From: Oscillospiraceae bacterium
Lineage (GTDB): Bacteria; Bacillota; Clostridia; Oscillospirales; Oscillospiraceae
Reading direction: 5' to 3'
NCBI GenBank assembly: GCA_017458085.1
Contig: JAFTGE010000012.1
Span: 176 to 64,175 of the forward strand
DNA: 64,000 nt
Below, piece after piece: positions 22,731 to 38,792 of the stretch (its first letter is position 1; each line of letters begins with the position of its first letter). The position numbers were made by a program, and so were the translations under genes. The notes under the pieces are model-generated. The model worked only from the letters and a program-made list of their open reading frames with translations. It was not told the DNA's origin and searched no databases.

Positions 22731-22775
22731 AAAAAGACAGGGCGTGCTGCATCAAGCAGCACGCCCTGTCTTTTT
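22731..22775. terminator. bidirectional intrinsic terminator
   Basis: 20-bp perfect arms AAAAAGACAGGGCGTGCTGC / GCAGCACGCCCTGTCTTTTT, loop ATCAA; A-run and T-run are part of the arms; between convergent genes. Confidence 0.85.
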
Positions 22776-24054
22776 ATTGCGCCTCACGCGCCCGCTTCAT
22801 CAGCCGGAGCACCGGGACAAAGCACAGCAGCAGGACCACCGCCGCGGCAAGGTAGATGCCCGGCGTCGGCACGGTCTTGACCTGGCCGAGGTCGATGTAG
22901 GTGCTGTCGCTGTTTTTGATGACCGCCGCGCCGATCCACGGCCCGATGATCATCGGCAGCAGCACCGCGAAGATCATGCGGATGCCCTGGAAATGGCCTA
23001 CCCGTTCGGCGGGCGTCCAGTCACGGATATTCGCGCCGAGCGCGGCGGACATCATCATGTACCCGCTCATCATCACCGTCCCGGCCACCATGACCCCGGC
23101 GCTTTGGCGCACAAAGTACATGCCCACAAGCCCCAGAAGCATCACCGCCGCCGCGGGGAAGACGAAGCGGAGCTTGCCGAAGCGGTCGATGAAGCGGCCG
23201 GACACCACACTCACCAGCGACGCGAGGATCAGCACCACCCCCAGGACGATCGCGTAATCCGTGATGCCGAGGAAGTTTTGAATGTAGATGATCAGATAGG
23301 GGAAGAACACCTGCACCGCCACGGAAAACAGGCAGAAGGCTGCAAAGGAGAGGTACAGCTCCGGGTTTTCGCGCACCACGTCGGGCCGCAGGCCGTAGAG
23401 CAGGTTTTTAAAATACCCGTCGCCGGCGGTCTTGACCGCCTCGTCCTTCACCAGAAGCACCGCGATCACACCGACCGCGCTCACCGCGAGGCCGAAGATG
23501 CCGAAAAATTCCTTCCACCGCCCCTGCTGGGTCAGGCCGTCAAAGAGGCCGAAGATGATGAGCATGGAGATCAGCGGCAGAATGGCCAGCACGCTCTCGG
23601 CCCGGCCGCGGTTTGTCTCGTCGGTGATATCGGTGACATAGGCGTTGAAGGCCGCGTCATTGGCGGTGGAGCCGAAGAAGGTCATGACGCAGTCCATGAT
23701 CACCACCAGCGTGGCGGCGGCCGCGGAAGAACTTACCCCCGGGAGCAGCCGCGCGGCGTTCTCCGGCGTAATGAAGCCGAAGGCCGCCGTGGACAGGCCC
23801 CACAACACATAGCCCAGGCAGATAAAAGCTTTGCGCTTGCCCAGCTTGTCCGACAGCGCGCCCATCAGCAGCGTCGTGGCCGTGGCCGCCGCGGCGCTCC
23901 AGCCCACCATGGCCGCGATGTATTTCGGGTCGGTGGAGATGGTGTTATACAAAAACACGTTGAAGTACATGTTCTCGATCGTCCAGGCAAACTGCCCGAA
24001 CAGGCCGATCAAAATCAGCACCAGCCATTTTCTGGCCCCCAGCTTTGTCGTCAT
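22774..24054 (-). CDS. MFS transporter
   Basis: Track ORF 22774-24072; ATG 24054 after GAAAGGAGA; 12-TM profile, ...GALSDKLGKRKAF... loop 2-3 motif. Confidence 0.85.
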   Translation of the reverse strand: MTTKLGARKWLVLILIGLFGQFAWTIENMYFNVFLYNTISTDPKYIAAMVGWSAAAATATTLLMGALSDKLGKRKAFICLGYVLWGLSTAAFGFITPENAARLLPGVSSSAAAATLVVIMDCVMTFFGSTANDAAFNAYVTDITDETNRGRAESVLAILPLISMLIIFGLFDGLTQQGRWKEFFGIFGLAVSAVGVIAVLLVKDEAVKTAGDGYFKNLLYGLRPDVVRENPELYLSFAAFCLFSVAVQVFFPYLIIYIQNFLGITDYAIVLGVVLILASLVSVVSGRFIDRFGKLRFVFPAAAVMLLGLVGMYFVRQSAGVMVAGTVMMSGYMMMSAALGANIRDWTPAERVGHFQGIRMIFAVLLPMIIGPWIGAAVIKNSDSTYIDLGQVKTVPTPGIYLAAAVVLLLCFVPVLRLMKRAREAQ

Positions 24055-24114
24055 CTCTCTGTCTCCTTTCAAGGCTCCCCTGTAAGGGCATTGCGCCCTT
24101 CACTTGTGGAGCGG

Positions 24115-25326
24115 TCACGCCCCCACGATGCCGAGGATCACCTGGACCGCCTGATCCATATGCTCGACCGTGATGTGCTCATACGGCCCGTGGAAGGCTG
24201 CGCCGCCTGTGCCCAGATTCGGGCAGGGCAGGCCGCGGAAGGAAAGCTGCGCCCCGTCGGTGCCGCCGCGGATGGGCCGGACCACGGGCTCCAGGCCCGC
24301 TTTTTCGATGGCGGCCTTCGCCCGATCTACGATTTCCATGTGGCCGCCAATGATTTCGGCCATGTTGCGGTACTGCTCGGTGAGGGTGAGGGCGACGGTG
24401 CCCGCGCCGTATTTTTCGTTCATCGCGCGCTCAATATCGCGCAGCGTGTCGCAGCGGGCCTGGAAGCGCCCGGCGTCATGGTCGCGCACAATGTATTTCA
24501 GCTCCGCCTCGCTGACCGAGCCGGACATGTCCGTCAGGTGGAAAAAGCCCGCGTAGCCCTCGGTCCTGGCCGGGATCTCCTCCGGCGGCAGCAGGGCGTT
24601 GATCTCCATGGCGACGAGGCTTGCGTTGACCATGATGTCCTTGGCGCTGCCCGGGTGGACATTGACACCCTTGACCGCAAAGCGTGCGCCGGCGGCGTTG
24701 AAGGTCTCAAAGTTGATTTCCTCCACCGCGTCGCCGTCGACGGTGTAGGCAAAGTCCGCGCCGAAGCGCTCGATGTCCAGCAGGGCCGCCCCGTGGCCGA
24801 TCTCCTCGTCCGGGGGGAAGCAGACGGCAATGCCGCCGTGGGGCGCGCCGCTTCGGATCAGTTCTTCGCACGCGGTCAGGATCTCCGCCACGCCCGCCTT
24901 GTCGTCGGCCCCCAGAAGGGTGGTGCCGTCGGTGGTGATGAGCGTCTGGCCCACGCAGTCTGAAAGATCGGGAAACTGCACGGGACTCAGCACCCGGCCG
25001 CTCTCGCCCAGAACCACATCGCCTCCGTCATAGTCCGGGTGCAGCACGGGCTTGACGCCGGTGCCGCTAAAGTCCGGGGCCGTGTCGATGTGGGCGATCA
25101 GACCGATCACCGGCTTGTCCTCCATCCCCGGTGTCGCCGGGAGATAGCCGTAGGTGTAGGCGTGCTCATCGCTGTACACGCGCTCCAGCCCCAGCGCCTC
25201 CATCTCCTCTGTCAGCAGCCTCACCAGGTCAAACTGCTTTTTTGTGCTGGGGGTCACATCTGCGCTGTCCTCGTTGCTCTGGGTATCCACCGCCGCATAG
25301 CGCAGCAGCCGTTCGTATGCTTTCAT
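24115..25326 (-). CDS. pepT: peptidase T (tripeptide aminopeptidase, M20B)
   Basis: MKAYERLLRYAAVDTQS..., IGLIAHIDTAPDFSG, GGTDGAQLSFRGLPCPNLGTGG..FHGPYE; ATG 25326 is better spaced from AGAGG than TTG 25332. Confidence 0.9.
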   Translation of the reverse strand: MKAYERLLRYAAVDTQSNEDSADVTPSTKKQFDLVRLLTEEMEALGLERVYSDEHAYTYGYLPATPGMEDKPVIGLIAHIDTAPDFSGTGVKPVLHPDYDGGDVVLGESGRVLSPVQFPDLSDCVGQTLITTDGTTLLGADDKAGVAEILTACEELIRSGAPHGGIAVCFPPDEEIGHGAALLDIERFGADFAYTVDGDAVEEINFETFNAAGARFAVKGVNVHPGSAKDIMVNASLVAMEINALLPPEEIPARTEGYAGFFHLTDMSGSVSEAELKYIVRDHDAGRFQARCDTLRDIERAMNEKYGAGTVALTLTEQYRNMAEIIGGHMEIVDRAKAAIEKAGLEPVVRPIRGGTDGAQLSFRGLPCPNLGTGGAAFHGPYEHITVEHMDQAVQVILGIVGA

Positions 25327-25429: not shown

Positions 25430-26173
25430 CTATAAAAAGATTTCCGTCGTCACAAAGAGCCTGCCCTTGCGGGAGTTCCCGCCCAGCTCGGTCAGCCTGC
25501 CTTTCCCCGCGCCGCGCAGGGAAAGAATATCCCCCTCCTTGATGGGCGCGTCGGTTTTCAGGCATTCGGTATAATTCAGGCTCACGTTCCCGGCAGCGAT
25601 CTGCCGGGCCGCCTCCGTGCGCGACAGGCGGAACATGCCCGCGCACACCGCGTCCAGCCGCAGGCTCATCACCGTAAAGCTGCGCGCCTCCACCTTCCGC
25701 GGCTTCTGTGCAATCGCGTCCAGCGGCACCTGCTCGGCCTTGACGCCGTAACGCCCCACCTTCTCGATGCTCAGCAGATGGCGCAGGACGCTCGGTTGAC
25801 ATAACACATATGCCGCGGGGCCGTCCACCAAGATGTCCCCGACCCACTCGCGCCCGACGCCCATGCCGAGGATGGCGCCCATATAGTCGCGGTGTCCCGG
25901 CTCGCCGAAGGCGGCGGTCAGCTTGATGGCACAGATATGCTCGGCCTCGTCGAATTCGTCTTCCTCCATATACTCCGGCAGGAAAAAGGCCATGGTGCGC
26001 TCGGCATCGGCATGGCCGCCGCGAAACAGCATCCGTGAGGCGCGCAGATTGACGTCGTGCTCCAGGGCATAGCGCTCCGCCGGGGAGAGAAAGCCGCTGT
26101 TGGTCAGGCAGTATTTCTGCTCGCAGCGCCGGGCCAGATCCTCGCCCCGCTTTAACAGTTCATTGTTTTCCAT
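25430..26173 (-). CDS. YlmH-like RNA-binding protein with C-terminal S4 domain
   Basis: 247 aa; ...GEPGHRDYMGAILGMGVGREWVGDI... middle domain and an S4-like end (LRLDAVCAGMFRLSRTEAARQIAAGNVSLNY...IKEGDILSLRGAGKG); its ATG lies inside the last 14 nt of the upstream gene. Confidence 0.8.
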   Translation of the reverse strand: MENNELLKRGEDLARRCEQKYCLTNSGFLSPAERYALEHDVNLRASRMLFRGGHADAERTMAFFLPEYMEEDEFDEAEHICAIKLTAAFGEPGHRDYMGAILGMGVGREWVGDILVDGPAAYVLCQPSVLRHLLSIEKVGRYGVKAEQVPLDAIAQKPRKVEARSFTVMSLRLDAVCAGMFRLSRTEAARQIAAGNVSLNYTECLKTDAPIKEGDILSLRGAGKGRLTELGGNSRKGRLFVTTEIFL

Positions 26174-28757
26174 CTTTCAATTTCGTCGTGTGCGCGCCCT
26201 GGTTGCTCTTTTTCAAAACCTCGTCGATCTGCGCCAGCACGCCCTCCACTTCTCCGATAAATTCCTGTGACGAGCACCGCAGCACGCCCGAGCGCAGGGC
26301 CGACAGGCGGATGAGGTTGTCGCTTGTCACCACGCGCACGGCGTAGTTTTTGCCGATCTCGTCGGCCAGCTTCTCGATGTAGGCGTCGCCGGTCTCCCCG
26401 TCCTTGGTAAAGGCCACGCTGATCTTGTGGTACTCGCTCCTGGAGCCGGGGTTACCCGGCGTGCGGAAGCCGTCGAACACCAGCACCAGCCTTTTGCCCG
26501 TGAAGCCCGCGTAGCCCGAGAGCATGTCCATCAGCCGCTCCCGCGCCAGATCCAGCCGCTCGGCGGCGAGGGCTTTCAGCTCCTCCCAGGCAAAGATCAG
26601 ATTGTACCCGTCGACGATCAGGTATTCTTTTTTCGGCGCGGGCAGAGGTCTTTCGACCGCCGCGTTGACCTGCTTGGCGCGGTACTCCGGCCTTTTGATC
26701 GGGCCGAACTCCCGCTCCATGATGGCCTCCAGCTCCCGCTCGTCGATGTCGAGACTGCGCCAGCGTTTGAGCGGTGCGGCCACGGTCTCCGTCCTGGGCT
26801 TGAGGCAGCTTTCCAGGTGCATGTAGTCCTTCACCTGATCCCAGGGGATGTTCACCCCCGCGCCGTGGGCGCAGAAGACCGAGTCGGCGGGATTTTCCTC
26901 ATCCCGCCGGGGATCGTAGCCGATCTGCCGCACCAGCTTCTCCTGCTCGGCCACCGGGCGGTAGCCGCCGGGGGAAAGACTGAGTCTGCCCCGGCCGTGG
27001 GTGTAGGCCAAAAGCTCCTCCATGTATTCGTTCATAGCCGTCACCGGCGCGCCGCCGGTCAGACGCATCAGCTCCCCCGCATCCTCGGGGGAGTCAAAGC
27101 TGCCGTTCATGGCCCGCACGTCGCTGATGGCGCGACCGATCTCCGTGGCCGGCACCTCGATCACAAAGCTGTACCACGGTTCGAGCAGCACGCTTTTGGC
27201 CTGCATCAGGCCCTGCCGCACGGCGCGGTAGGTGGCCTGGCGGAAGTCGCCACCCTCGGTGTGCTTGAGGTGCGCCCGGCCCGCGGCGAGGGTAATGCGC
27301 ATGTCCGTAATGGGCGCGCCCGTGAGAACGCCCCGGTGCCGCTTTTCGGCCAGATGCGTGAGGATCAGGCGCTGCCAGTTGCGGTCCAGGCTGTCCTCGG
27401 GGCAGATGCTGTCAAAGCTCAAACCGCTGCCTGCGGGCAGGGGCTCCATCAGGAGGTGCACCTCGGCGTAATGGCGCAGGGGTTCAAAGTGGCCCACGCC
27501 CTCCACGGTGTCGGCGATGGTCTCGCGGTACATGACGCGCCCGGTATCCAGCGCAACGACGGTATCAAAGCGCTCAAGCACCTGGCGTTTGAAGACGTCG
27601 GCCTGGATCTTGCCCATGAGCTGGACGCTGATTTCTTTTAACTGTCCGTTCCAGACGATGTGCAGCTGGGGGTCCTCCTGATCCAGCTGCATGAGCTTAG
27701 GCAGCAGGGCCATGGGATCGGTGCCCGCTTCGAGCAGCAGCCGGTAGCTCATCACAGGCTCTAAAACCGGCGACTCGGAGTCCGCCGCCGCGCCGAGGCC
27801 CTGACCGGGCCGCGTCTGGCTCAAGCCCAAAGCGGCGCAGACCGCGCCCGCGGGCACCGTCTCCGCCGTTTCAAATTTTGCCCCGGAATAGAGGCGCAGC
27901 TGCGTGACCTTCTCCTCCCGGCTTTCCCCGGTCCCGTCGGCATAGCGCAGCAGCGACCGCACGCGAAGCTCCCCGCCTGTGACTTTGAGCCAGGTCAGGC
28001 GGTTGCCCTGCGCGTCACGGGAAATTTTATAGACTTTGGCGGAAAAGGCTTCCCCATAGTCTCTCCCGCGCGTCAGGCGCTCGAGCGCCCGCAAAAATTC
28101 CTCCACGCCCTCGGTTTTCAGTCCCGAGCCGAAAAAGCAGGGAAACAGCCGCCGTTCAGCAATCAGCGCCGCAAGCGTCTGGTCATCCAGGCCGCCCGTT
28201 TCCAGATAGCGCTCCATGGCCTCCTCGTCACAGAGGGCCGCGGCCTCATGAATCGCCGCCGTGTTCTGGGTAAAGTCCACGCAATCGGCCGAGAGCCGCC
28301 GGTTGAGCTCAGCCATCAGCGCGGCCTTGTCCGCGCCGGGCAGATCCATCTTGGTGACAAACACAAAGGTCGGCACCTTGTTGTGCTCCAAAAGCCGCCA
28401 CAGGGTCTCCGTGTGCGCCTGCACGCCGTCTGTGCCGCTGATGACCAGCACCGCGTAGTCGAGCACCTGCAAGGTGCGCTCGGCCTCAGCGGAAAAATCC
28501 ACATGCCCCGGCGTATCCAGCAGGGTCACCGTCGTCTCGCCCAGGCTCATTCTGGCCTGCTTGGCAAAGATGGTGATGCCCCGCTCCCGCTCCAGACTGT
28601 GGTGATCCAGGAAGCTGTCCCGGTGGTCGACCCGGCCCAGCTTTTTCAGTTTTCCCGACAGGTACAGCATCGCCTCGCACAGCGTCGTCTTGCCGGCGTC
28701 CACATGGGCGAGGATGCCCAGTACCCGTTGATTACTCTGACTGTTCATGGTCAGCAT
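26160..28757 (-). CDS. translational GTPase (TetM/TetO/EF-G-like) fused to a C-terminal YacP/Rae1-type NYN ribonuclease domain
   Basis: Single ORF. G1 AHVDAGKTT, G2 RGITI, G3 DTPGH, G4 TKMD; domains II-V in TetM-like order. The last ~155 aa (26163-26627) carry LIVDGYNLIFAW, LVLVFDG, FTKDGETGDAYIEKLA and VVTSDN, matching B. subtilis YacP. Start uncertain (ATG 28757 or 28748, TTG 28790; no SD). Confidence 0.85.
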   Translation of the reverse strand: MLTMNSQSNQRVLGILAHVDAGKTTLCEAMLYLSGKLKKLGRVDHRDSFLDHHSLERERGITIFAKQARMSLGETTVTLLDTPGHVDFSAEAERTLQVLDYAVLVISGTDGVQAHTETLWRLLEHNKVPTFVFVTKMDLPGADKAALMAELNRRLSADCVDFTQNTAAIHEAAALCDEEAMERYLETGGLDDQTLAALIAERRLFPCFFGSGLKTEGVEEFLRALERLTRGRDYGEAFSAKVYKISRDAQGNRLTWLKVTGGELRVRSLLRYADGTGESREEKVTQLRLYSGAKFETAETVPAGAVCAALGLSQTRPGQGLGAAADSESPVLEPVMSYRLLLEAGTDPMALLPKLMQLDQEDPQLHIVWNGQLKEISVQLMGKIQADVFKRQVLERFDTVVALDTGRVMYRETIADTVEGVGHFEPLRHYAEVHLLMEPLPAGSGLSFDSICPEDSLDRNWQRLILTHLAEKRHRGVLTGAPITDMRITLAAGRAHLKHTEGGDFRQATYRAVRQGLMQAKSVLLEPWYSFVIEVPATEIGRAISDVRAMNGSFDSPEDAGELMRLTGGAPVTAMNEYMEELLAYTHGRGRLSLSPGGYRPVAEQEKLVRQIGYDPRRDEENPADSVFCAHGAGVNIPWDQVKDYMHLESCLKPRTETVAAPLKRWRSLDIDERELEAIMEREFGPIKRPEYRAKQVNAAVERPLPAPKKEYLIVDGYNLIFAWEELKALAAERLDLARERLMDMLSGYAGFTGKRLVLVFDGFRTPGNPGSRSEYHKISVAFTKDGETGDAYIEKLADEIGKNYAVRVVTSDNLIRLSALRSGVLRCSSQEFIGEVEGVLAQIDEVLKKSNQGAHTTKLKDGKQ

Positions 28758-28889
28758 TTTAGCAGGAACCGCTGCAAGAATCAATGCCAAATACGGAGGA
28801 TAATTCCTGAGCTGGTTGCAAATAATTCAATATTATGTAACCCTTCGGGCAAATGCTGAAAATTTTCCTATGTTTTTTGAAACTTTGAC

Positions 28890-28918: not shown

Positions 28919-28983
28919 TAAGTGATAAATTGCAACCACCATTGACTGTTTCCATCTTACCGATAAAAAAGGGGTCACGCTTC

Positions 28984-29673
28984 ATGAAGAAAATACTTGT
29001 CTTGGAGGACGAATCCAATATCCGCAGCTTTGTGGTCATCAACCTGCGGCGCAGCGGCTTTGAGCCGATCGAGGCCGCCAGCGGGGAGGAAGCCCTCGAA
29101 AAGCTGAAGGTCAACCCGGACATCTGTCTGGCACTGCTGGACGTGATGCTGCCGGATATCGACGGCTTTGAGGTCTGCCGCCGTATTCGGGCCTCCGGCT
29201 CGAAGATGGGCATTATCATGCTCACCGCCAAGAATCAGGAAATCGACAAGGTCACGGGCCTGATGACCGGGGCCGACGACTATGTCACCAAGCCCTTCTC
29301 CCCGGCGGAGCTGACCGCCCGTGTGGACGCGCTGATCCGCCGCCTCGGTGTCGACGAGGATGAGAAGAACGCCTCGGAGCTTGTCAGCGGGCCCTTCCTG
29401 CTCAACACCCGCAACCGCACCCTGGAAAAGGACGGCCAGCGGCTCAAGCTGACGCAGATCGAATACCTGCTCATCAAGCTCTTTATGGAGAATCCCGGCA
29501 AGGCCATGAGCCGCGAGGATATCCTCTCCGCCGTCTGGGGCAGCGACTTTACCGGCGAGCTCAAGACCGTGGACGTCAACATCCGGCGCCTGCGCATCAA
29601 GATCGAGGACGACCCGACCGAGCCCGAGTACCTGACCACTGTCTGGGGCTACGGGTATAAGTGGGGATACTGA
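28984..29673 (+). CDS. OmpR-family response regulator
   Basis: Track ORF 28930-29673; ATG 28984 gives MKKILVLEDESNIR...; ...LTTVWGYGYKW winged helix. Confidence 0.9.
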   Translation: MKKILVLEDESNIRSFVVINLRRSGFEPIEAASGEEALEKLKVNPDICLALLDVMLPDIDGFEVCRRIRASGSKMGIIMLTAKNQEIDKVTGLMTGADDYVTKPFSPAELTARVDALIRRLGVDEDEKNASELVSGPFLLNTRNRTLEKDGQRLKLTQIEYLLIKLFMENPGKAMSREDILSAVWGSDFTGELKTVDVNIRRLRIKIEDDPTEPEYLTTVWGYGYKWGY

Positions 29674-29683
29674 CTTGCGTTTT

Positions 29684-29799
29684 GTTTCAATGGCACAGCC
29701 ATTGAAACGAGGCTTTACAGCCCTCTGCGCGCACTCGCTTTGCTCGCACACTGGAGGGCTGAGAAATGTTTTTTCCGAGGCGCATGTCCTCGGAAAAAA
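29684..29799. other. three consecutive stem-loops filling the RR-HK spacer
   Basis: H1 GTTTCAATGGC-aca-GCCATTGAAAC (29684-29708); H2 CAGCCCTC...GAGGGCTG (29718-29761); H3 TTTTTTCCGAGG-cgcatgt-CCTCGGAAAAAA (29769-29799). Confidence 0.8.
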
Positions 29800-29826
29800 C
29801 GGATTTAAATCAGGAAGTACATTTAT

Positions 29827-30822
29827 ATGTTTGGCAATTTGAAAACGCAACTGCTGCTGTCGAGCATTGCGGCGCTGGCGCTGCTGCTGATGGGCATCTG
29901 GGCGTCCAGCCACGGGCTGGCCGGCTGGGCCACGGCGATCTTCATCGTGGTCTGCGCCTATGTTATCGCGCTCAACGTCTGGTTCTGGCGCTTTGTCTGC
30001 GCGCCGCTGAGCCGTCTGACCGCCCACGCCCACCGCATTTCCGAGGGCAGCTACGGCGTCAAGACCGAGGACTTTGACGACGACGAGATCGGGGAGCTGG
30101 CCGAGGAGATCAACAACATGTCCGAAAAGGCCGGCATCGCCGAGAAGGCCCGCACGGAGTTTATCTCCCAGGTCTCCCACGAGCTGAGAACTCCCCTGAC
30201 CGCCATCACCGGCTGGGCCGAAACCATTGCCTTTGACCCCGACGTCAAGGGCGATTCGCTCAAGGGTGTGAATATCATCTCCAAGGAGGCCGAGCGCCTG
30301 ACCAACATGGTGACGGAGCTTTTGGAGTTTACCCGCATTCAGGACGGGCGCTTCAATCTGCGCGTCGAGCTGATCGATATTGCCGCCGAACTGGAGGATG
30401 CCCTGTTTACATACGGGGAGCTGATGAAGCAGGCCGGCATGACCGTCAGGTATGTCGCGCCGCCGACCGAGATCCCCCTGATCCCCGCCGATCCCGAGCG
30501 GCTCAAGCAGGTGTTCTTGAACCTGCTGGACAATGCCATGAAGCACGGCGGCGACGGCGGGCGGATCGACGTGTCCCTGCGCGCGGAGAATGGACGCGTG
30601 CGCGTCAACGTGCGCGACTACGGCCACGGCATCCCGGAGGCGGAGCTGCCCCACGTCAAGGAGAAGTTTTACAAGGGCAGCTCGAAAAACCGCGGCACGG
30701 GCATCGGCCTTGCCGTCTGTGACGAGATCGTCACCCGCCACGGCGGAAGGCTCGACATCTCCAACGCGCCCGGGACCGAGGGCGGCTGCCTTGTCTCGGT
30801 CACCTTACCCATGGCAAAATAA
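29827..30822 (+). CDS. sensor histidine kinase (2 TM without a sizeable external loop, HAMP, HisKA, HATPase_c)
   Basis: 331 aa; H-box SHELRTPLTAITGW; N/G boxes LLDNAMKHG, GTGIGLAV. Confidence 0.85.
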   Translation: MFGNLKTQLLLSSIAALALLLMGIWASSHGLAGWATAIFIVVCAYVIALNVWFWRFVCAPLSRLTAHAHRISEGSYGVKTEDFDDDEIGELAEEINNMSEKAGIAEKARTEFISQVSHELRTPLTAITGWAETIAFDPDVKGDSLKGVNIISKEAERLTNMVTELLEFTRIQDGRFNLRVELIDIAAELEDALFTYGELMKQAGMTVRYVAPPTEIPLIPADPERLKQVFLNLLDNAMKHGGDGGRIDVSLRAENGRVRVNVRDYGHGIPEAELPHVKEKFYKGSSKNRGTGIGLAVCDEIVTRHGGRLDISNAPGTEGGCLVSVTLPMAK

Positions 30823-36351: not shown

Positions 36352-37803
36352 ATGTATCTATACAATTCCGCCACCCGTAAGAAACAGGAGTTTGTGCCCA
36401 ACCATCCCGACATCGTCAAGATGTACACCTGCGGCCCCACGGTCTACCACTTCGCGCACATCGGCAACCTGCGCTCCTATATCATGGAAGACATACTGGA
36501 GAAGTACCTGCGCTACCTGGGCTACAATGTCAAGCGTGTCATGAACATCACCGATGTCGGCCACCTGACCTCCGACGCCGACGAAGGCGAGGATAAGATG
36601 CTCAAGGGCGCCAAGCGCGAGCACAAGTCCGTGCTGGAGATTGCCAAGTTCTACACCGACGCCTTCTTTGACGATTGCGCCAAGCTCAACATCAAGACCC
36701 CCGACGTGGTCGAGCCCGCCACTAACTGCATTGACGACTATATCCGCATCATCACCAAGCTCATGGACACCGGCTACGCCTACTTCGCCGGCGGCAACGT
36801 GTACTTTGACACCTCCAAGCTTGAGCGCTACTACATCTTCAACGACTTCAACCAGGACGATCTGAACGTCGGCGTGCGCGAGGGTGTCGAGGAGGACACC
36901 AACAAGCGCAACAAGAACGACTTCGTGCTGTGGTTCACCAAGTCCAAGTTCGAGGATCAGGCCCTCAAGTGGGATTCCCCCTGGGGCGTGGGCTACCCCG
37001 GCTGGCACATCGAGTGCTCCGGCATCTCGATGAAGCACCTGGGCGAGGATCTGGACATCCACTGCGGCGGCATTGACAACGCCTTCCCCCACCACACCAA
37101 CGAAATTGCCCAGTCTGAGTCCTATCTCGGCCACCATTGGTGCAATTTCTGGATGCATGTCCTCCACCTGAACACCACCTCCGGCAAAATGAGCAAGTCC
37201 AGCGGCGAGTTTTTGACCGTCTCCCTTCTTCAGGAGAAGGGCTATGACCCCCTGGCCTACCGCTTCTTCTGCCTGCAGAGCCATTACCGCAAGATCCTGG
37301 TCTTCTCCTGGGAGAACCTCGATAACGCCCAGGTCGCCTACAACAAGCTGATCGCGCGCATCGCCGCCCTCAAGCCCGGCGACGGCGAGGTCGATGCCGA
37401 AGCCTTGGCCGCCCTGCAGGAAAAGTTCCGCGCCGCCATGGACAACGACCTGAACACCTCCCTGGCTGTCACAGCGGTGTACGATGTGCTCAAGGCCAAG
37501 ACCAACGACGAGACCAAGCTGGCTGCCCTGGCCGACTTTGACCGCGTGCTGAGCCTGGGCCTGATCGAGAAGGCCGCCGCCAAGCGTGAGGAGCTGAAAA
37601 AGCAGGCCGTCACCGCGGGCGAGTTTACCATCGTGTCCGAGTCCGGTGAATCCGATCCCGAGGTTGAGGCCAAGATCCAGGCCCGTCAGGATGCCAAGAA
37701 GGCCAAGAACTTTGCCGAGGCCGACCGCATCCGCGACGAGCTCAAGGCCGCCGGCATCGAGGTCACCGACATCCCCCACGGCGCCAAGTGGAAGCGCGTA
37801 TAA
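36352..37803 (+). CDS. cysS: cysteine--tRNA ligase
   Basis: 483 aa; HIGN (HFAHIGNLRSY) and KMSKS motifs. Confidence 0.95.
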   Translation: MYLYNSATRKKQEFVPNHPDIVKMYTCGPTVYHFAHIGNLRSYIMEDILEKYLRYLGYNVKRVMNITDVGHLTSDADEGEDKMLKGAKREHKSVLEIAKFYTDAFFDDCAKLNIKTPDVVEPATNCIDDYIRIITKLMDTGYAYFAGGNVYFDTSKLERYYIFNDFNQDDLNVGVREGVEEDTNKRNKNDFVLWFTKSKFEDQALKWDSPWGVGYPGWHIECSGISMKHLGEDLDIHCGGIDNAFPHHTNEIAQSESYLGHHWCNFWMHVLHLNTTSGKMSKSSGEFLTVSLLQEKGYDPLAYRFFCLQSHYRKILVFSWENLDNAQVAYNKLIARIAALKPGDGEVDAEALAALQEKFRAAMDNDLNTSLAVTAVYDVLKAKTNDETKLAALADFDRVLSLGLIEKAAAKREELKKQAVTAGEFTIVSESGESDPEVEAKIQARQDAKKAKNFAEADRIRDELKAAGIEVTDIPHGAKWKRV

Positions 37804-37819
37804 GCGAACACCATATAAA

Positions 37820-37873
37820 AAGGGGCTGTGAAGGTCCGGCGAGTGTTACCTTGCCTTTTCTTCACAGCCCCTT
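37820..37873. terminator. long palindromic terminator-like element, GGGGCTGTGAAG stem family (copy 2)
   Basis: 14-bp arms AAGGGGCTGTGAAG (37820-37833) / CTTCACAGCCCCTT (37860-37873), 26-nt loop containing GGCGAG as in copy 1; between convergent cysS and noc-like genes. Confidence 0.7.
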
Positions 37874-37876
37874 GTA

Positions 37877-38704
37877 TTATGTTCCGGCGCGGCTTTTCGG
37901 GATGGAGATGGTGAGGATCAGTGTGTCCTCGGTTTCCTCGCGGTGCACGCCTGCGTCGATTCCGCCCTGCTTCATCAGATCCAGGCTGCGGTTGAGACTG
38001 TTGAGGAAGACGCGCACATCCTTTAAAACGAGCGTGCGCTTTGGCTCCGGCTTGTCCGCGGGCGTCTCCTCCGGCGCGGAAAGCAGCGCCTCAATGTATT
38101 CCTCCGCCGCGGCAACGGTCAGATTGTTCTCCGCCATGTAGGCCAGCGCCATGCGCTGGGCGTTCGGATCGTTCAGACGCAGCAGCGCCCGGCCGTGCCG
38201 TTCGCTCAGTCCCTGATCCCGCAGCCCCTCCAGCACATCCCGCGGCAGCTTTAACAGCCGCAGCTTGTTGGCCACGGCGGATTGGGACTTGCCGATGCGC
38301 CGGGCGGCCTCCTCCTGACTGAGCCCGAACATGCGGATCAGGCGGCTCAGGCCCACGGCCTCCTCAATGAAGTCCAGGTCCCGACGCTGGAGGTTTTCCA
38401 CCAGGGCGATGAGACTGGCGTCCTCCATGTTCACGTCCAGCAGAATACACGGAACCTCCGCCAGTCCAGCCAGCTTTGCCGCCCGCAGCCGCCTTTCTCC
38501 TGCGACCAGCTCATAGCGCCCGCCGCGGCAGCGCACCGTCAGCGGGTTGAGGATGCCGTAGCTCTGAATGCTCTGGCTCAGCTCCTCCAGCGCCTTGTCG
38601 TCGAAGCGTTTTCGCGGCTGGACGGGGTTGGGCGCGATTTCCTCCGTGGGCAGCCACACAATATTTCCCCGCCGCACATTCGGTCGGGAACGCAATGCTT
38701 GCAT
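37877..38704 (-). CDS. ParB-family protein of the Noc (nucleoid occlusion) type, orphan (no ParA)
   Basis: 275 aa; ParB box ELVAGERRLRAA, HTH GKSQSAVANKLRLLKLP, and C-terminus KDVRVFLNSLNRSLDLMKQGGIDA...LILTISIPK resembling the B. subtilis Noc tail; ATG 38704 is 7 nt after GGAGG. Confidence 0.8.
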   Translation of the reverse strand: MQALRSRPNVRRGNIVWLPTEEIAPNPVQPRKRFDDKALEELSQSIQSYGILNPLTVRCRGGRYELVAGERRLRAAKLAGLAEVPCILLDVNMEDASLIALVENLQRRDLDFIEEAVGLSRLIRMFGLSQEEAARRIGKSQSAVANKLRLLKLPRDVLEGLRDQGLSERHGRALLRLNDPNAQRMALAYMAENNLTVAAAEEYIEALLSAPEETPADKPEPKRTLVLKDVRVFLNSLNRSLDLMKQGGIDAGVHREETEDTLILTISIPKSRAGT

Positions 38705-38792
38705 CAAAAAGCCTCCTTATCTTGTGGTTTGATGATGCAAGCATATACCAGATATAGCGAGAAAGCGGGCGAAAGCACAGCAGCCGGGAAAT

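Follow-up and report, generated by a model that had tools for sequence, protein, structure and literature searches.

The subject of this work is a gene that joins, in one polypeptide, a translational GTPase of the EF-G type and an endoribonuclease domain of the Rae1/YacP type. It lies in a stretch of 64,000 nucleotides from an Oscillospiraceae bacterium (assembly GCA_017458085.1, contig JAFTGE010000012.1, positions 176-64,175 of the forward strand), hereafter the window, where it overlaps a downstream gene coding for a YlmH homologue. On balance, the fusion protein is probably a ribosome-docked, GTP-gated endoribonuclease of Rae1 type, directed at the mRNA of ribosomes that have stalled or collided. 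Atkinson 2015 (PMC4342817) and Matelska 2017 (PMC5499597) mentioned the fusion and left it uncharacterised, and full-text literature searches found no paper characterising it or mentioning the overlap with ylmH. A first-pass annotation of this DNA, made from the sequence, knew of no characterised example; this still holds, although the fusion itself had already been noted in those two works. Added here to the earlier mentions are the size of the family, the invariance of its catalytic sites, its departure from the criteria for tetracycline ribosomal protection proteins (RPP), a C-terminal extension common to nuclease-free relatives, a clade-limited and persistent overlap with ylmH and a leaderless promoter.

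The minus-strand frame is open throughout between 26160 and 28790, so that the uninterrupted open reading frame (ORF) of about 865 codons described in the first-pass annotation is borne out, and the same can be said of the G motifs and of the five-domain order of translational GTPases, which were recovered by Pfam search, AlphaFold2 and Foldseek. In the translation these motifs read AHVDAGKTT (G1), RGITI (G2), DTPGH (G3, containing His85) and TKMD (G4). With G1 to G4, the catalytic histidine and domains II to V in EF-G order, the protein is an EF-G-type translational GTPase at the superfamily level. The Pfam matches to EF-G_D2 and EFG_III are weak and under their cut-offs; the predicted structure (AlphaFold2, mean predicted local distance difference test score, pLDDT, of 78) and a Foldseek match of some 690 columns with EF-G (E 1.7e-51) confirmed the EF-G fold and support its presence in domains II and III.

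Conservation of each module was expressed as the mean top-residue frequency in the family, and invariant positions were taken from an alignment of 46 diverse members at 39-53% identity. The residues G22, K23, T24, T62, D81-H85, K136 and D138, which cover the P-loop, the switch threonine, the whole of DTPGH and, within G4, the lysine and the aspartate, are invariant. Domain IV is the most conserved module of all (0.67, compared with 0.59 for the G domain), which argues that contact with the decoding centre matters; G420, G422, H423, E425, P426, L427, H429, E432, H499 and D504 are invariant in it, and at least 90% of the members also share H496 and K498. Two motifs at the tip of this domain, EGVGHFEPLRHYAEVH and GRAHLKHTEGGDFRQATYRAVRQG, are family-specific; they are near-identical in the window, Monoglobus and Agathobacter rectalis, and partly kept in a relative from Ligilactobacillus salivarius that has no NYN domain (GKASNVHTVGGDFRQA).

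Between domain V and the NYN domain there are about 106 residues, consisting of a folded extension (606-650) followed by a tether of about 60 residues (651-711). The linker of about 60 residues in the first-pass annotation agrees with this tether, and with the "first ~650 aa" that had been assigned to the GTPase, whereas the complete distance from domain V to the nuclease is longer. For the extension, AlphaFold2 predicts a helix (605-612), a hairpin (626-637) and a second helix (639-645) with pLDDT of about 76-85. Its mean top-residue frequency is 0.59; Y614, S626, F628 and G632 are invariant, and C629, G634 and H647 are present in at least 90% of the members. The tether is the least conserved part of the protein (0.29) and its length varies among homologues; in the predicted model, pLDDT drops below 50 in two stretches, 655-672 and 685-708, and a helix (673-684) lies between them. 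According to a polymer-scaling estimate, a disordered tether of 60 residues would typically span about 60-70 Å, and about 190 Å at most. The member from A. rectalis (L085:5983-8784) has a longer tether and, between G2 and G3, a low-complexity insertion of 25 residues (NAADTADTAHTADVACTADTARTW...).

The nuclease part was recognised by Pfam NYN_YacP (PF05991) at residues 713-854, with E 2.7e-39 and 135.3 bits against a cut-off of 24.6, over profile positions 1-144 of 166. The C-terminal 140 residues align end to end, without large gaps, with the crystal structure of Bacillus subtilis YacP/Rae1 (5mq9, E 6.7e-23), and the identity between both domains over these 140 residues is 38%; the original alignment with Rae1 and the retention of its acidic residues are thus sustained. 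The putative active-site aspartates are D716, D762, D791 and D813, aligned with the Rae1 motifs VDGYN, VFDA, ETAD and TSD, and all four are invariant in the 46 fusion proteins. The NYN fold is predicted confidently by AlphaFold2.

In comparison with Rae1 (PDB 5mq8/5mq9), then, the domain belongs to the same Pfam family, can be aligned over the full length and keeps VDGYN, FD, ETxD and TSD. Nevertheless, Rae1 is a single domain of 170 residues that binds the ribosome transiently, whereas in the fusion the NYN domain forms the C-terminal fifth of a GTPase of 865 residues, behind an N-terminal region of 711 residues. The genetic context is also different: stand-alone rae1 is usually found in the cysS-mrnC-yacO-yacP operon of Firmicutes (PMC5499597), whereas cysS in the window (36352-38707 region, about 8 kb from the fusion) is followed by a convergent ParB-like gene and not by mrnC-yacO(rlmB)-yacP. 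No second copy of the NYN domain, of YlmH or of the GTPase was found within the window, and in the PLSDB records of Monoglobus and Agathobacter, which cover part of the genomes, the fusion is the sole NYN match.

The fusion is not restricted to this genome. A set of 81 loci was assembled from 80 fetched loci and the source contig of the window (L001), and in 80 of the 81 the GTPase, the tether and the nuclease lie in a single frame; the sole broken frame is that of Lachnospiraceae bacterium UBA3316 (L072), for which pseudogene formation or a fault of the assembly may be responsible. The best 120 database relatives (74-100% identity) all have the GTPase, EFG_IV, EFG_C and NYN_YacP domains, as have 120 further proteins collected with a profile of distant members, and the same Pfam set occurs in thousands of database proteins. 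When the protein library was clustered at 50% identity and the best 150 clusters were considered, most of them had 830-1000 residues and matched across residues 10-850. Homologues of 864-866 residues cover 100% of the fusion protein, and ENA holds an identical protein (P0001), encoded on a 94-kb metagenome scaffold. When GTDB was scanned at one genome for each species, with the tether and nuclease part alone as query, 141 species were found. A frameshift, a chimeric ORF and an assembly artefact were rejected in view of the identical protein on record and of the one-ORF form in nearly every locus and in thousands of proteins. Judging from this distribution, the fusion architecture is under selection, because it is kept as one ORF in 80 of 81 loci, in thousands of proteins and in most of the best 150 clusters.

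The family spans Oscillospiraceae, Lachnospiraceae and Monoglobales. The closest relatives belong to Candidatus Limivicinus and other Oscillospiraceae metagenome-assembled genomes (MAGs), and the cultured carriers include Agathobacter rectalis, Monoglobus pectinilyticus, Flavonifractor plautii, Sellimonas catena, Robinsoniella peoriensis, Coprococcus and Drancourtella.

Many members carry the NCBI label "TetM/TetW/TetO/TetS family" (among them P0020, P0054, P0059, P0285, P0304, P0345 and H2-H25), and the nuclease-free relatives from L. salivarius carry it too. Such a label would make these proteins antibiotic ribosomal-protection factors like Tet(M) and Tet(O); a related possibility is protection against another A-site drug. 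In either case the RNase would be an accessory, as Atkinson 2015 suggested; we consider this very unlikely. It is true that tet_protect (NF012153) is the best NCBIfam model, that the five-domain order and the G motifs are those of Tet(M)/Tet(O), with an alignment over about 590 residues, and that loop III has the same length as in Tet(M) and is known to tolerate substitutions if its shape is kept (PMC4750697). However, the score for tet_protect is 382.8 against a cut-off of 775, which is half of what the curated model demands, and the protein also falls far under the cut-offs of NF033148 (233.9 against 1100), of the Tet(M) model (197 against 1420) and of every other Tet-specific model, that for Tet(O) included; the identity to Tn916-type Tet(M) is 29%. 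Loop III of Tet(M), LYYSPVSTPA (L505-Y-Y-S508-P509-V510), is replaced by RAHLKHTEGG, where the family shows hardly any or no variation at H496, K498, H499 and T500, and the short C-terminal helix that follows domain V in Tet(M) is replaced by the 45-residue folded extension. Furthermore, the fusion adds the tether and a nuclease whose invariant site would have no role in drug displacement, and its gene belongs to the core chromosome, lies off mobile elements and has a start close to the promoter and probably leaderless, in place of the leader peptide of tet(M). On the curated cut-offs, loop III and the C-terminal helix, membership of the tetracycline RPP was rejected, and the idea that the protein acts only as a classical RPP, which the first-pass annotation had named as one that would overturn its reading, is not supported. 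By the same curated sequence models, the TetM/TetW/TetO/TetS label is unjustified. As the family is abundant in the dominant Clostridia of the human and animal gut, the label probably inflates resistome counts.

EF-G is the best structural match of the GTPase and also its best match among PDB sequences, and H573 at the tip of domain IV of Thermus thermophilus EF-G corresponds to H496 of the fusion. The protein is not EF-G proper: it scores 257.7 against the TIGR00484 cut-off of 659.4, loop I of its domain IV is four residues shorter and it has extra C-terminal modules. A different comparison is offered by Ligilactobacillus salivarius UCC118, whose pMP118 codes for a relative without NYN domain (WP_164920261, 644 residues, L084:4974-6908). 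This protein is 47-48% identical to the fusion over residues 12-649, including the tip motifs and the extension, but it ends right after the extension and lacks tether and nuclease; its gene adjoins rpsN (S14), which is divergent. Other NYN-less members of the subfamily are P0262, P0266, P0254 and P0255. The extension is thus found in L. salivarius pMP118, P0262 and P0266, and not in Tet(M).

The gene downstream of the fusion codes for the 247-residue YlmH-type protein that had been recognised from the start. It has 36.9 bits for Pfam YlmH_RBD (cut-off 23, E 4.6e-9) and 20.2 for Pfam S4, slightly under the cut-off of 22.8, and its residues 14-244 align with residues 23-254 of B. subtilis YlmH (8s1p_V, E 2.5e-28). 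Both proteins have the same three-domain layout (PDB 8s1p), and the arginine equivalent to R182 is kept within an identical, aligned SLRLD; in B. subtilis the R182A substitution inactivates YlmH and mutation of R182 abolishes binding to the 50S subunit (PMC11317155). The differences are that the gene lies outside the ylm/dcw context, that it overlaps another gene and that its product remains below the cut-off of the cyanobacterial equivalog TIGR03069. The junction reads ...AAAGATGGAAAACAATGA, GATGGAAAACAATGA, with the ylmH-like start 14 nucleotides ahead of the fusion stop, as had been noted originally. By direct reading no Shine-Dalgarno sequence is evident upstream of the ylmH-like start; therefore, translation of ylmH may depend on the ribosomes that finish the fusion gene, and the two genes may be translationally coupled.

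With respect to other genomes, ylmH lies directly downstream of the fusion in 47 of the 81 loci. The overlap measures 14 nucleotides in 39 of these 47, and 30 have exactly ATGGAAAACA(A/G)TGA. Most of the ylmH-linked loci keep the wider synteny too, so that shared ancestry explains part of the linkage. In six loci (L022, L023, L053, L058, L059 and L063), ylmH is the sole neighbour kept, which speaks for the two genes being retained together as one unit. The conserved linkage with the S4 gene on which the first reading had relied therefore stands for the 47 linked loci and not for those, discussed below, in which ylmH is absent. The ylmH link is real and is confined to part of the Oscillospiraceae.

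Upstream of the fusion, a consensus scan of the window revealed a promoter-like site whose -10 element ends 7 nucleotides ahead of the ATG at 28748. The pattern TTGnnn-N17-TGnTAnnnT, 6-8 nucleotides ahead of an in-frame ATG, is present in 28 loci (27 related loci and L001), and direct reading of the window agrees with it; the related loci in which it was listed include L002, L004-L007, L012, L014, L016, L017, L021, L024, L025, L027, L029 and L030, and further L032-L038, L041, L043, L044 and L052; here and in the window (28746-28784) its form is TTGATT-N17-TGnTAnAAT. In these loci the promoter and the ATG are conserved and the remainder of the upstream intergenic region is not. Since the -10 element ends at 28756 and the ATG at 28757, the start taken in the first-pass annotation, falls within it, the start is probably 28748, with a product of 862 residues. 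The distance of 6-8 nucleotides makes the operon look leaderless, and the fusion-ylmH transcript probably begins at or beside the start codon. A Rfam scan of the window gave no regulatory RNA upstream of the fusion, and no upstream leader peptide was found from the conservation of this region in the related loci. The coordinates of the gene, its modules and its neighbour are collected in Table 1.

Table 1. Features of the fusion gene and of the adjoining ylmH-like gene (positions are those of the window)
Feature	Position	Strand	Description
Promoter-like site	28756..28784	minus	Consensus scan; -35 TTGATT (28784-28779), 17-nt spacer, extended -10 TGcTAAAAT ending at 28756
Fusion gene	26160..28757	minus	865 codons from ATG 28757, stop 26160-26162; start probably 28748
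G domain	28074..28730	minus	Residues 10-228; Pfam GTP_EFTU, E 3.5e-48
Domains II + III	27549..28046	minus	Residues 238-403; EF-G_D2 238-315, EFG_III 333-403
Domain IV	27195..27542	minus	Residues 406-521; Pfam EFG_IV, E 5.8e-17
Domain V	26943..27191	minus	Residues 523-605; Pfam EFG_C, E 4.2e-15
C-terminal extension, family-specific	26808..26942	minus	Residues 606-650, ...GYDPRRDEENPADSVFCAHGAGVNIPWDQVKDYMH
Flexible tether	26625..26807	minus	Residues 651-711; one short semi-conserved helix ERELEAIMEREFGP, about 672-685
Rae1/YacP-type NYN endoribonuclease domain	26163..26624	minus	Residues 712-865
14-nt overlap, ATGGAAAACAATGA	26160..26173	minus	ylmH-like start (ATG 26173) and fusion stop TGA 26160-26162
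YlmH homologue	25430..26173	minus	247 aa; N-terminal domain, RRM-like central domain, C-terminal S4

The interpretation of the fusion depends to a great extent on what is known about Rae1, which cleaves mRNA solely in the context of a stalled ribosome (PMC12407103) and generates substrates for transfer-messenger RNA (tmRNA) on collided ribosomes, as described in a 2026 preprint (PMC13622287). Cleavage in the A site, which the first-pass annotation had taken as established, was explicitly set aside in 2025 by the same authors who had proposed it (PMC12407103), and a "GTPase that delivers an A-site RNase" is no longer the natural geometry, since that model has been withdrawn. A ribosome-targeted nuclease for stalled ribosomes, also put forward in the first-pass annotation, remains the best-supported reading: the action of Rae1 on mRNAs of stalled or collided ribosomes matches what fusion to a ribosome-binding GTPase implies. 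From what is known about the two families, we infer that the protein occupies the factor site of the ribosome, its domain IV reaching into the A site or close to it, that its substrate is mRNA, and that tmRNA or RQC brings about rescue once the cut is made.

The sequence of events would be as follows. The GTP form of the body, similar to EF-G and TetM, would bind the ribosomal factor site and insert domain IV toward the decoding centre, and this insertion would select ribosomes with a free or abnormal A site, that is, stalled or collided ones. The tethered NYN nuclease would then cut the mRNA on or beside the docked ribosome, the truncated message would feed rescue by tmRNA, or ribosome-associated quality control (RQC) after subunit splitting, and the factor would be released by GTP hydrolysis. 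In the clade of the window, where the fusion would be co-transcribed with ylmH and its translation is probably coupled, the nuclease and a downstream rescue factor would be made together, YlmH being an S4-domain factor that would work on 50S-peptidyl-tRNA complexes. For both the position of the cut and the functional link between fusion and YlmH, we likewise infer rather than observe. What the data do show is the domain make-up, the intactness of the catalytic motifs, their conservation throughout the family and the arrangement of the operon.

Several observations weigh against this scheme. In B. subtilis, the route from Rae1 to tmRNA and that from MutS2 to RqcH/RqcP/YlmH have been reported as independent pathways (PMC13622287). 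Besides, ylmH is absent from 31 loci for which 0.95 kb or more of the downstream region is available, and the genes found there instead are unrelated; these ylmH-less loci include all those of Lachnospiraceae, Flavonifractor and Sellimonas, and by clustering of the flanking ORFs they share no partner gene, the downstream genes being all different. The existence of the NYN-less relatives implies that the GTPase has a function of its own. Finally, the -12 cut site of Rae1 is far from the factor-binding site of the same ribosome, and therefore the model needs either a tether that reaches the neighbouring ribosome of a disome or a different cut site.

With such a tether, the nuclease could extend either to the side where mRNA enters the same ribosome or to the contact with the adjacent ribosome; in the latter case, a GTPase located on the trailing ribosome would bring the fusion into agreement with the -12 cut site. 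Thus, as a tentative and rather doubtful proposal, the protein might be a bacterial GTPase and no-go-decay nuclease in one polypeptide that docks on the trailing or stalled ribosome and cuts at the ribosome-ribosome interface, with the ylmH overlap of the Limivicinus-type clade tying cleavage to the clearance of 50S-peptidyl-tRNA. If this were true, that clade would merge the Rae1/tmRNA and RQC routes, which are separate in B. subtilis. The first-pass annotation was right about the anatomy of the locus; the combined module of cleavage and RQC imagined there has to be presented as a new hypothesis because those routes are independent in B. subtilis. The overlap itself points to a possible connection between mRNA cleavage and RQC.

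Functional analogues can be found in other organisms. Hbs1-Dom34 of eukaryotes is a comparable case of a factor for stalled ribosomes that is delivered by a GTPase. SmrB from Escherichia coli and the eukaryotic Cue2 are nucleases that act on stalled or collided ribosomes and trigger rescue (PMC13622287). The folds of SmrB, Cue2 and Hbs1-Dom34 are unrelated to that of the fusion, and none of them is known to unite a nuclease with a translational GTPase in a single chain.

The fusion offers an experimental route to a question of the field, namely the manner in which stalled or collided ribosomes are recognised by Rae1. That a natural protein has its Rae1 domain as a fixed part of a ribosome-binding GTPase speaks in favour of Rae1-type nucleases being directed to ribosomes. 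The structure of ribosome-bound Rae1 is lacking since the binding is reportedly too transient (PMC13622287); a fusion protein made GTPase-dead or locked with GDPNP could be trapped on ribosomes and, if the proposal is true, would be the first way to capture a nuclease of this type on its substrate for structural work.

A role in ribosome biogenesis or turnover is the second possibility to be considered, and we find it unlikely. The GTPase would act on immature, damaged or idle subunits, the NYN domain would trim or cleave rRNA or tRNA, and YlmH would take up the second role proposed for it, on 50S subunits devoid of P-site tRNA. The operon that YacP forms with mrnC and yacO was what first connected this family with the processing of rRNA and tRNA (PMC5499597, PMC4342817), and most of the particles pulled down with B. 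subtilis YlmH were 50S subunits without P-site tRNA and with H68/H69 displaced, from which the authors suggested a role in biogenesis (PMC11317155). In Robinsoniella, a gene for an RsgA-like GTPase lies two genes upstream of the fusion. However, translation-dependent cleavage of mRNA is the sole activity demonstrated for the YacP family (PMC12407103, PMC13622287), the high conservation of domain IV suggests a contact with the decoding centre in 70S or 30S particles with an mRNA/tRNA context, and the conserved neighbours of the fusion include no gene for biogenesis.

Regarding the genomic setting, the window contains pheST, a two-component system, DUF1385, prmC, recA, recX, rimO, pgsA, cysS, peptidase T and transporters. 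This is an ordinary core-gene chromosome with housekeeping functions, which counts in favour of the stalled-ribosome reading, and a mobile-element or plasmid origin was discarded as unsupported given these neighbours. The PLSDB matches in Monoglobus and Agathobacter are located on large non-mobilizable replicons with housekeeping genes.

The setting bears on another explanation, namely a regulated device for translation shut-off or defence, in which mRNA, tRNA or rRNA would be cut in a toxin-like manner under stress or phage attack, with YlmH or other protein as modulator. RelE is a ribosome-dependent mRNA nuclease, and RelE-like enzymes work in this way. The BrnT/BrnA toxin-antitoxin pair located directly upstream of the fusion in A. 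rectalis, on the opposite strand, would fit such a device, and the preprint on Rae1 speculates on defence against foreign mRNA (PMC13622287). We give this explanation hardly any credence, taking into account that neither the fusion nor the YlmH homologue matched the defence-system models of PADLOC, that most loci have no conserved candidate for an antidote partner and that the promoter is conserved and constitutive-looking; the housekeeping setting and the wide spread in Oscillospiraceae, Lachnospiraceae and Monoglobales also speak against it.

Some minor observations concern the window and the surroundings of the fusion. The window has antisense ORFs of 404-739 residues that overlap real genes, at 26427-27641 (+), 22744-24963 (+) and 28975-30741 (-); they were rejected as genes because their codon-position GC pattern is unlike that of coding sequence, and they represent shadow ORFs of the kind usual at the 62% GC of this genome. 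In Robinsoniella peoriensis (L086) and in a Clostridia MAG (L088), which were the two contexts of Lachnospiraceae type examined, greA shares the strand of the fusion and is found 2-3.5 kb further downstream, which may be due to chance as it concerns two loci. Finally, the cultured Oscillospiraceae relative Vescimonas fastidiosa MM35 (pMM35_01, 498499-539947, L089), whose CysS is 80% identical, keeps the order RR-HK-DUF1385-prmC-recA-recX-rimO-pgsA-cysS (RR, response regulator; HK, histidine kinase) and has neither the fusion nor ylmH at the corresponding spot, where a gene with VCBS repeats beside the response-regulator gene replaces the fusion-ylmH-pepT block. Since the flanks are kept, this block represents an insertion or a deletion between close relatives.

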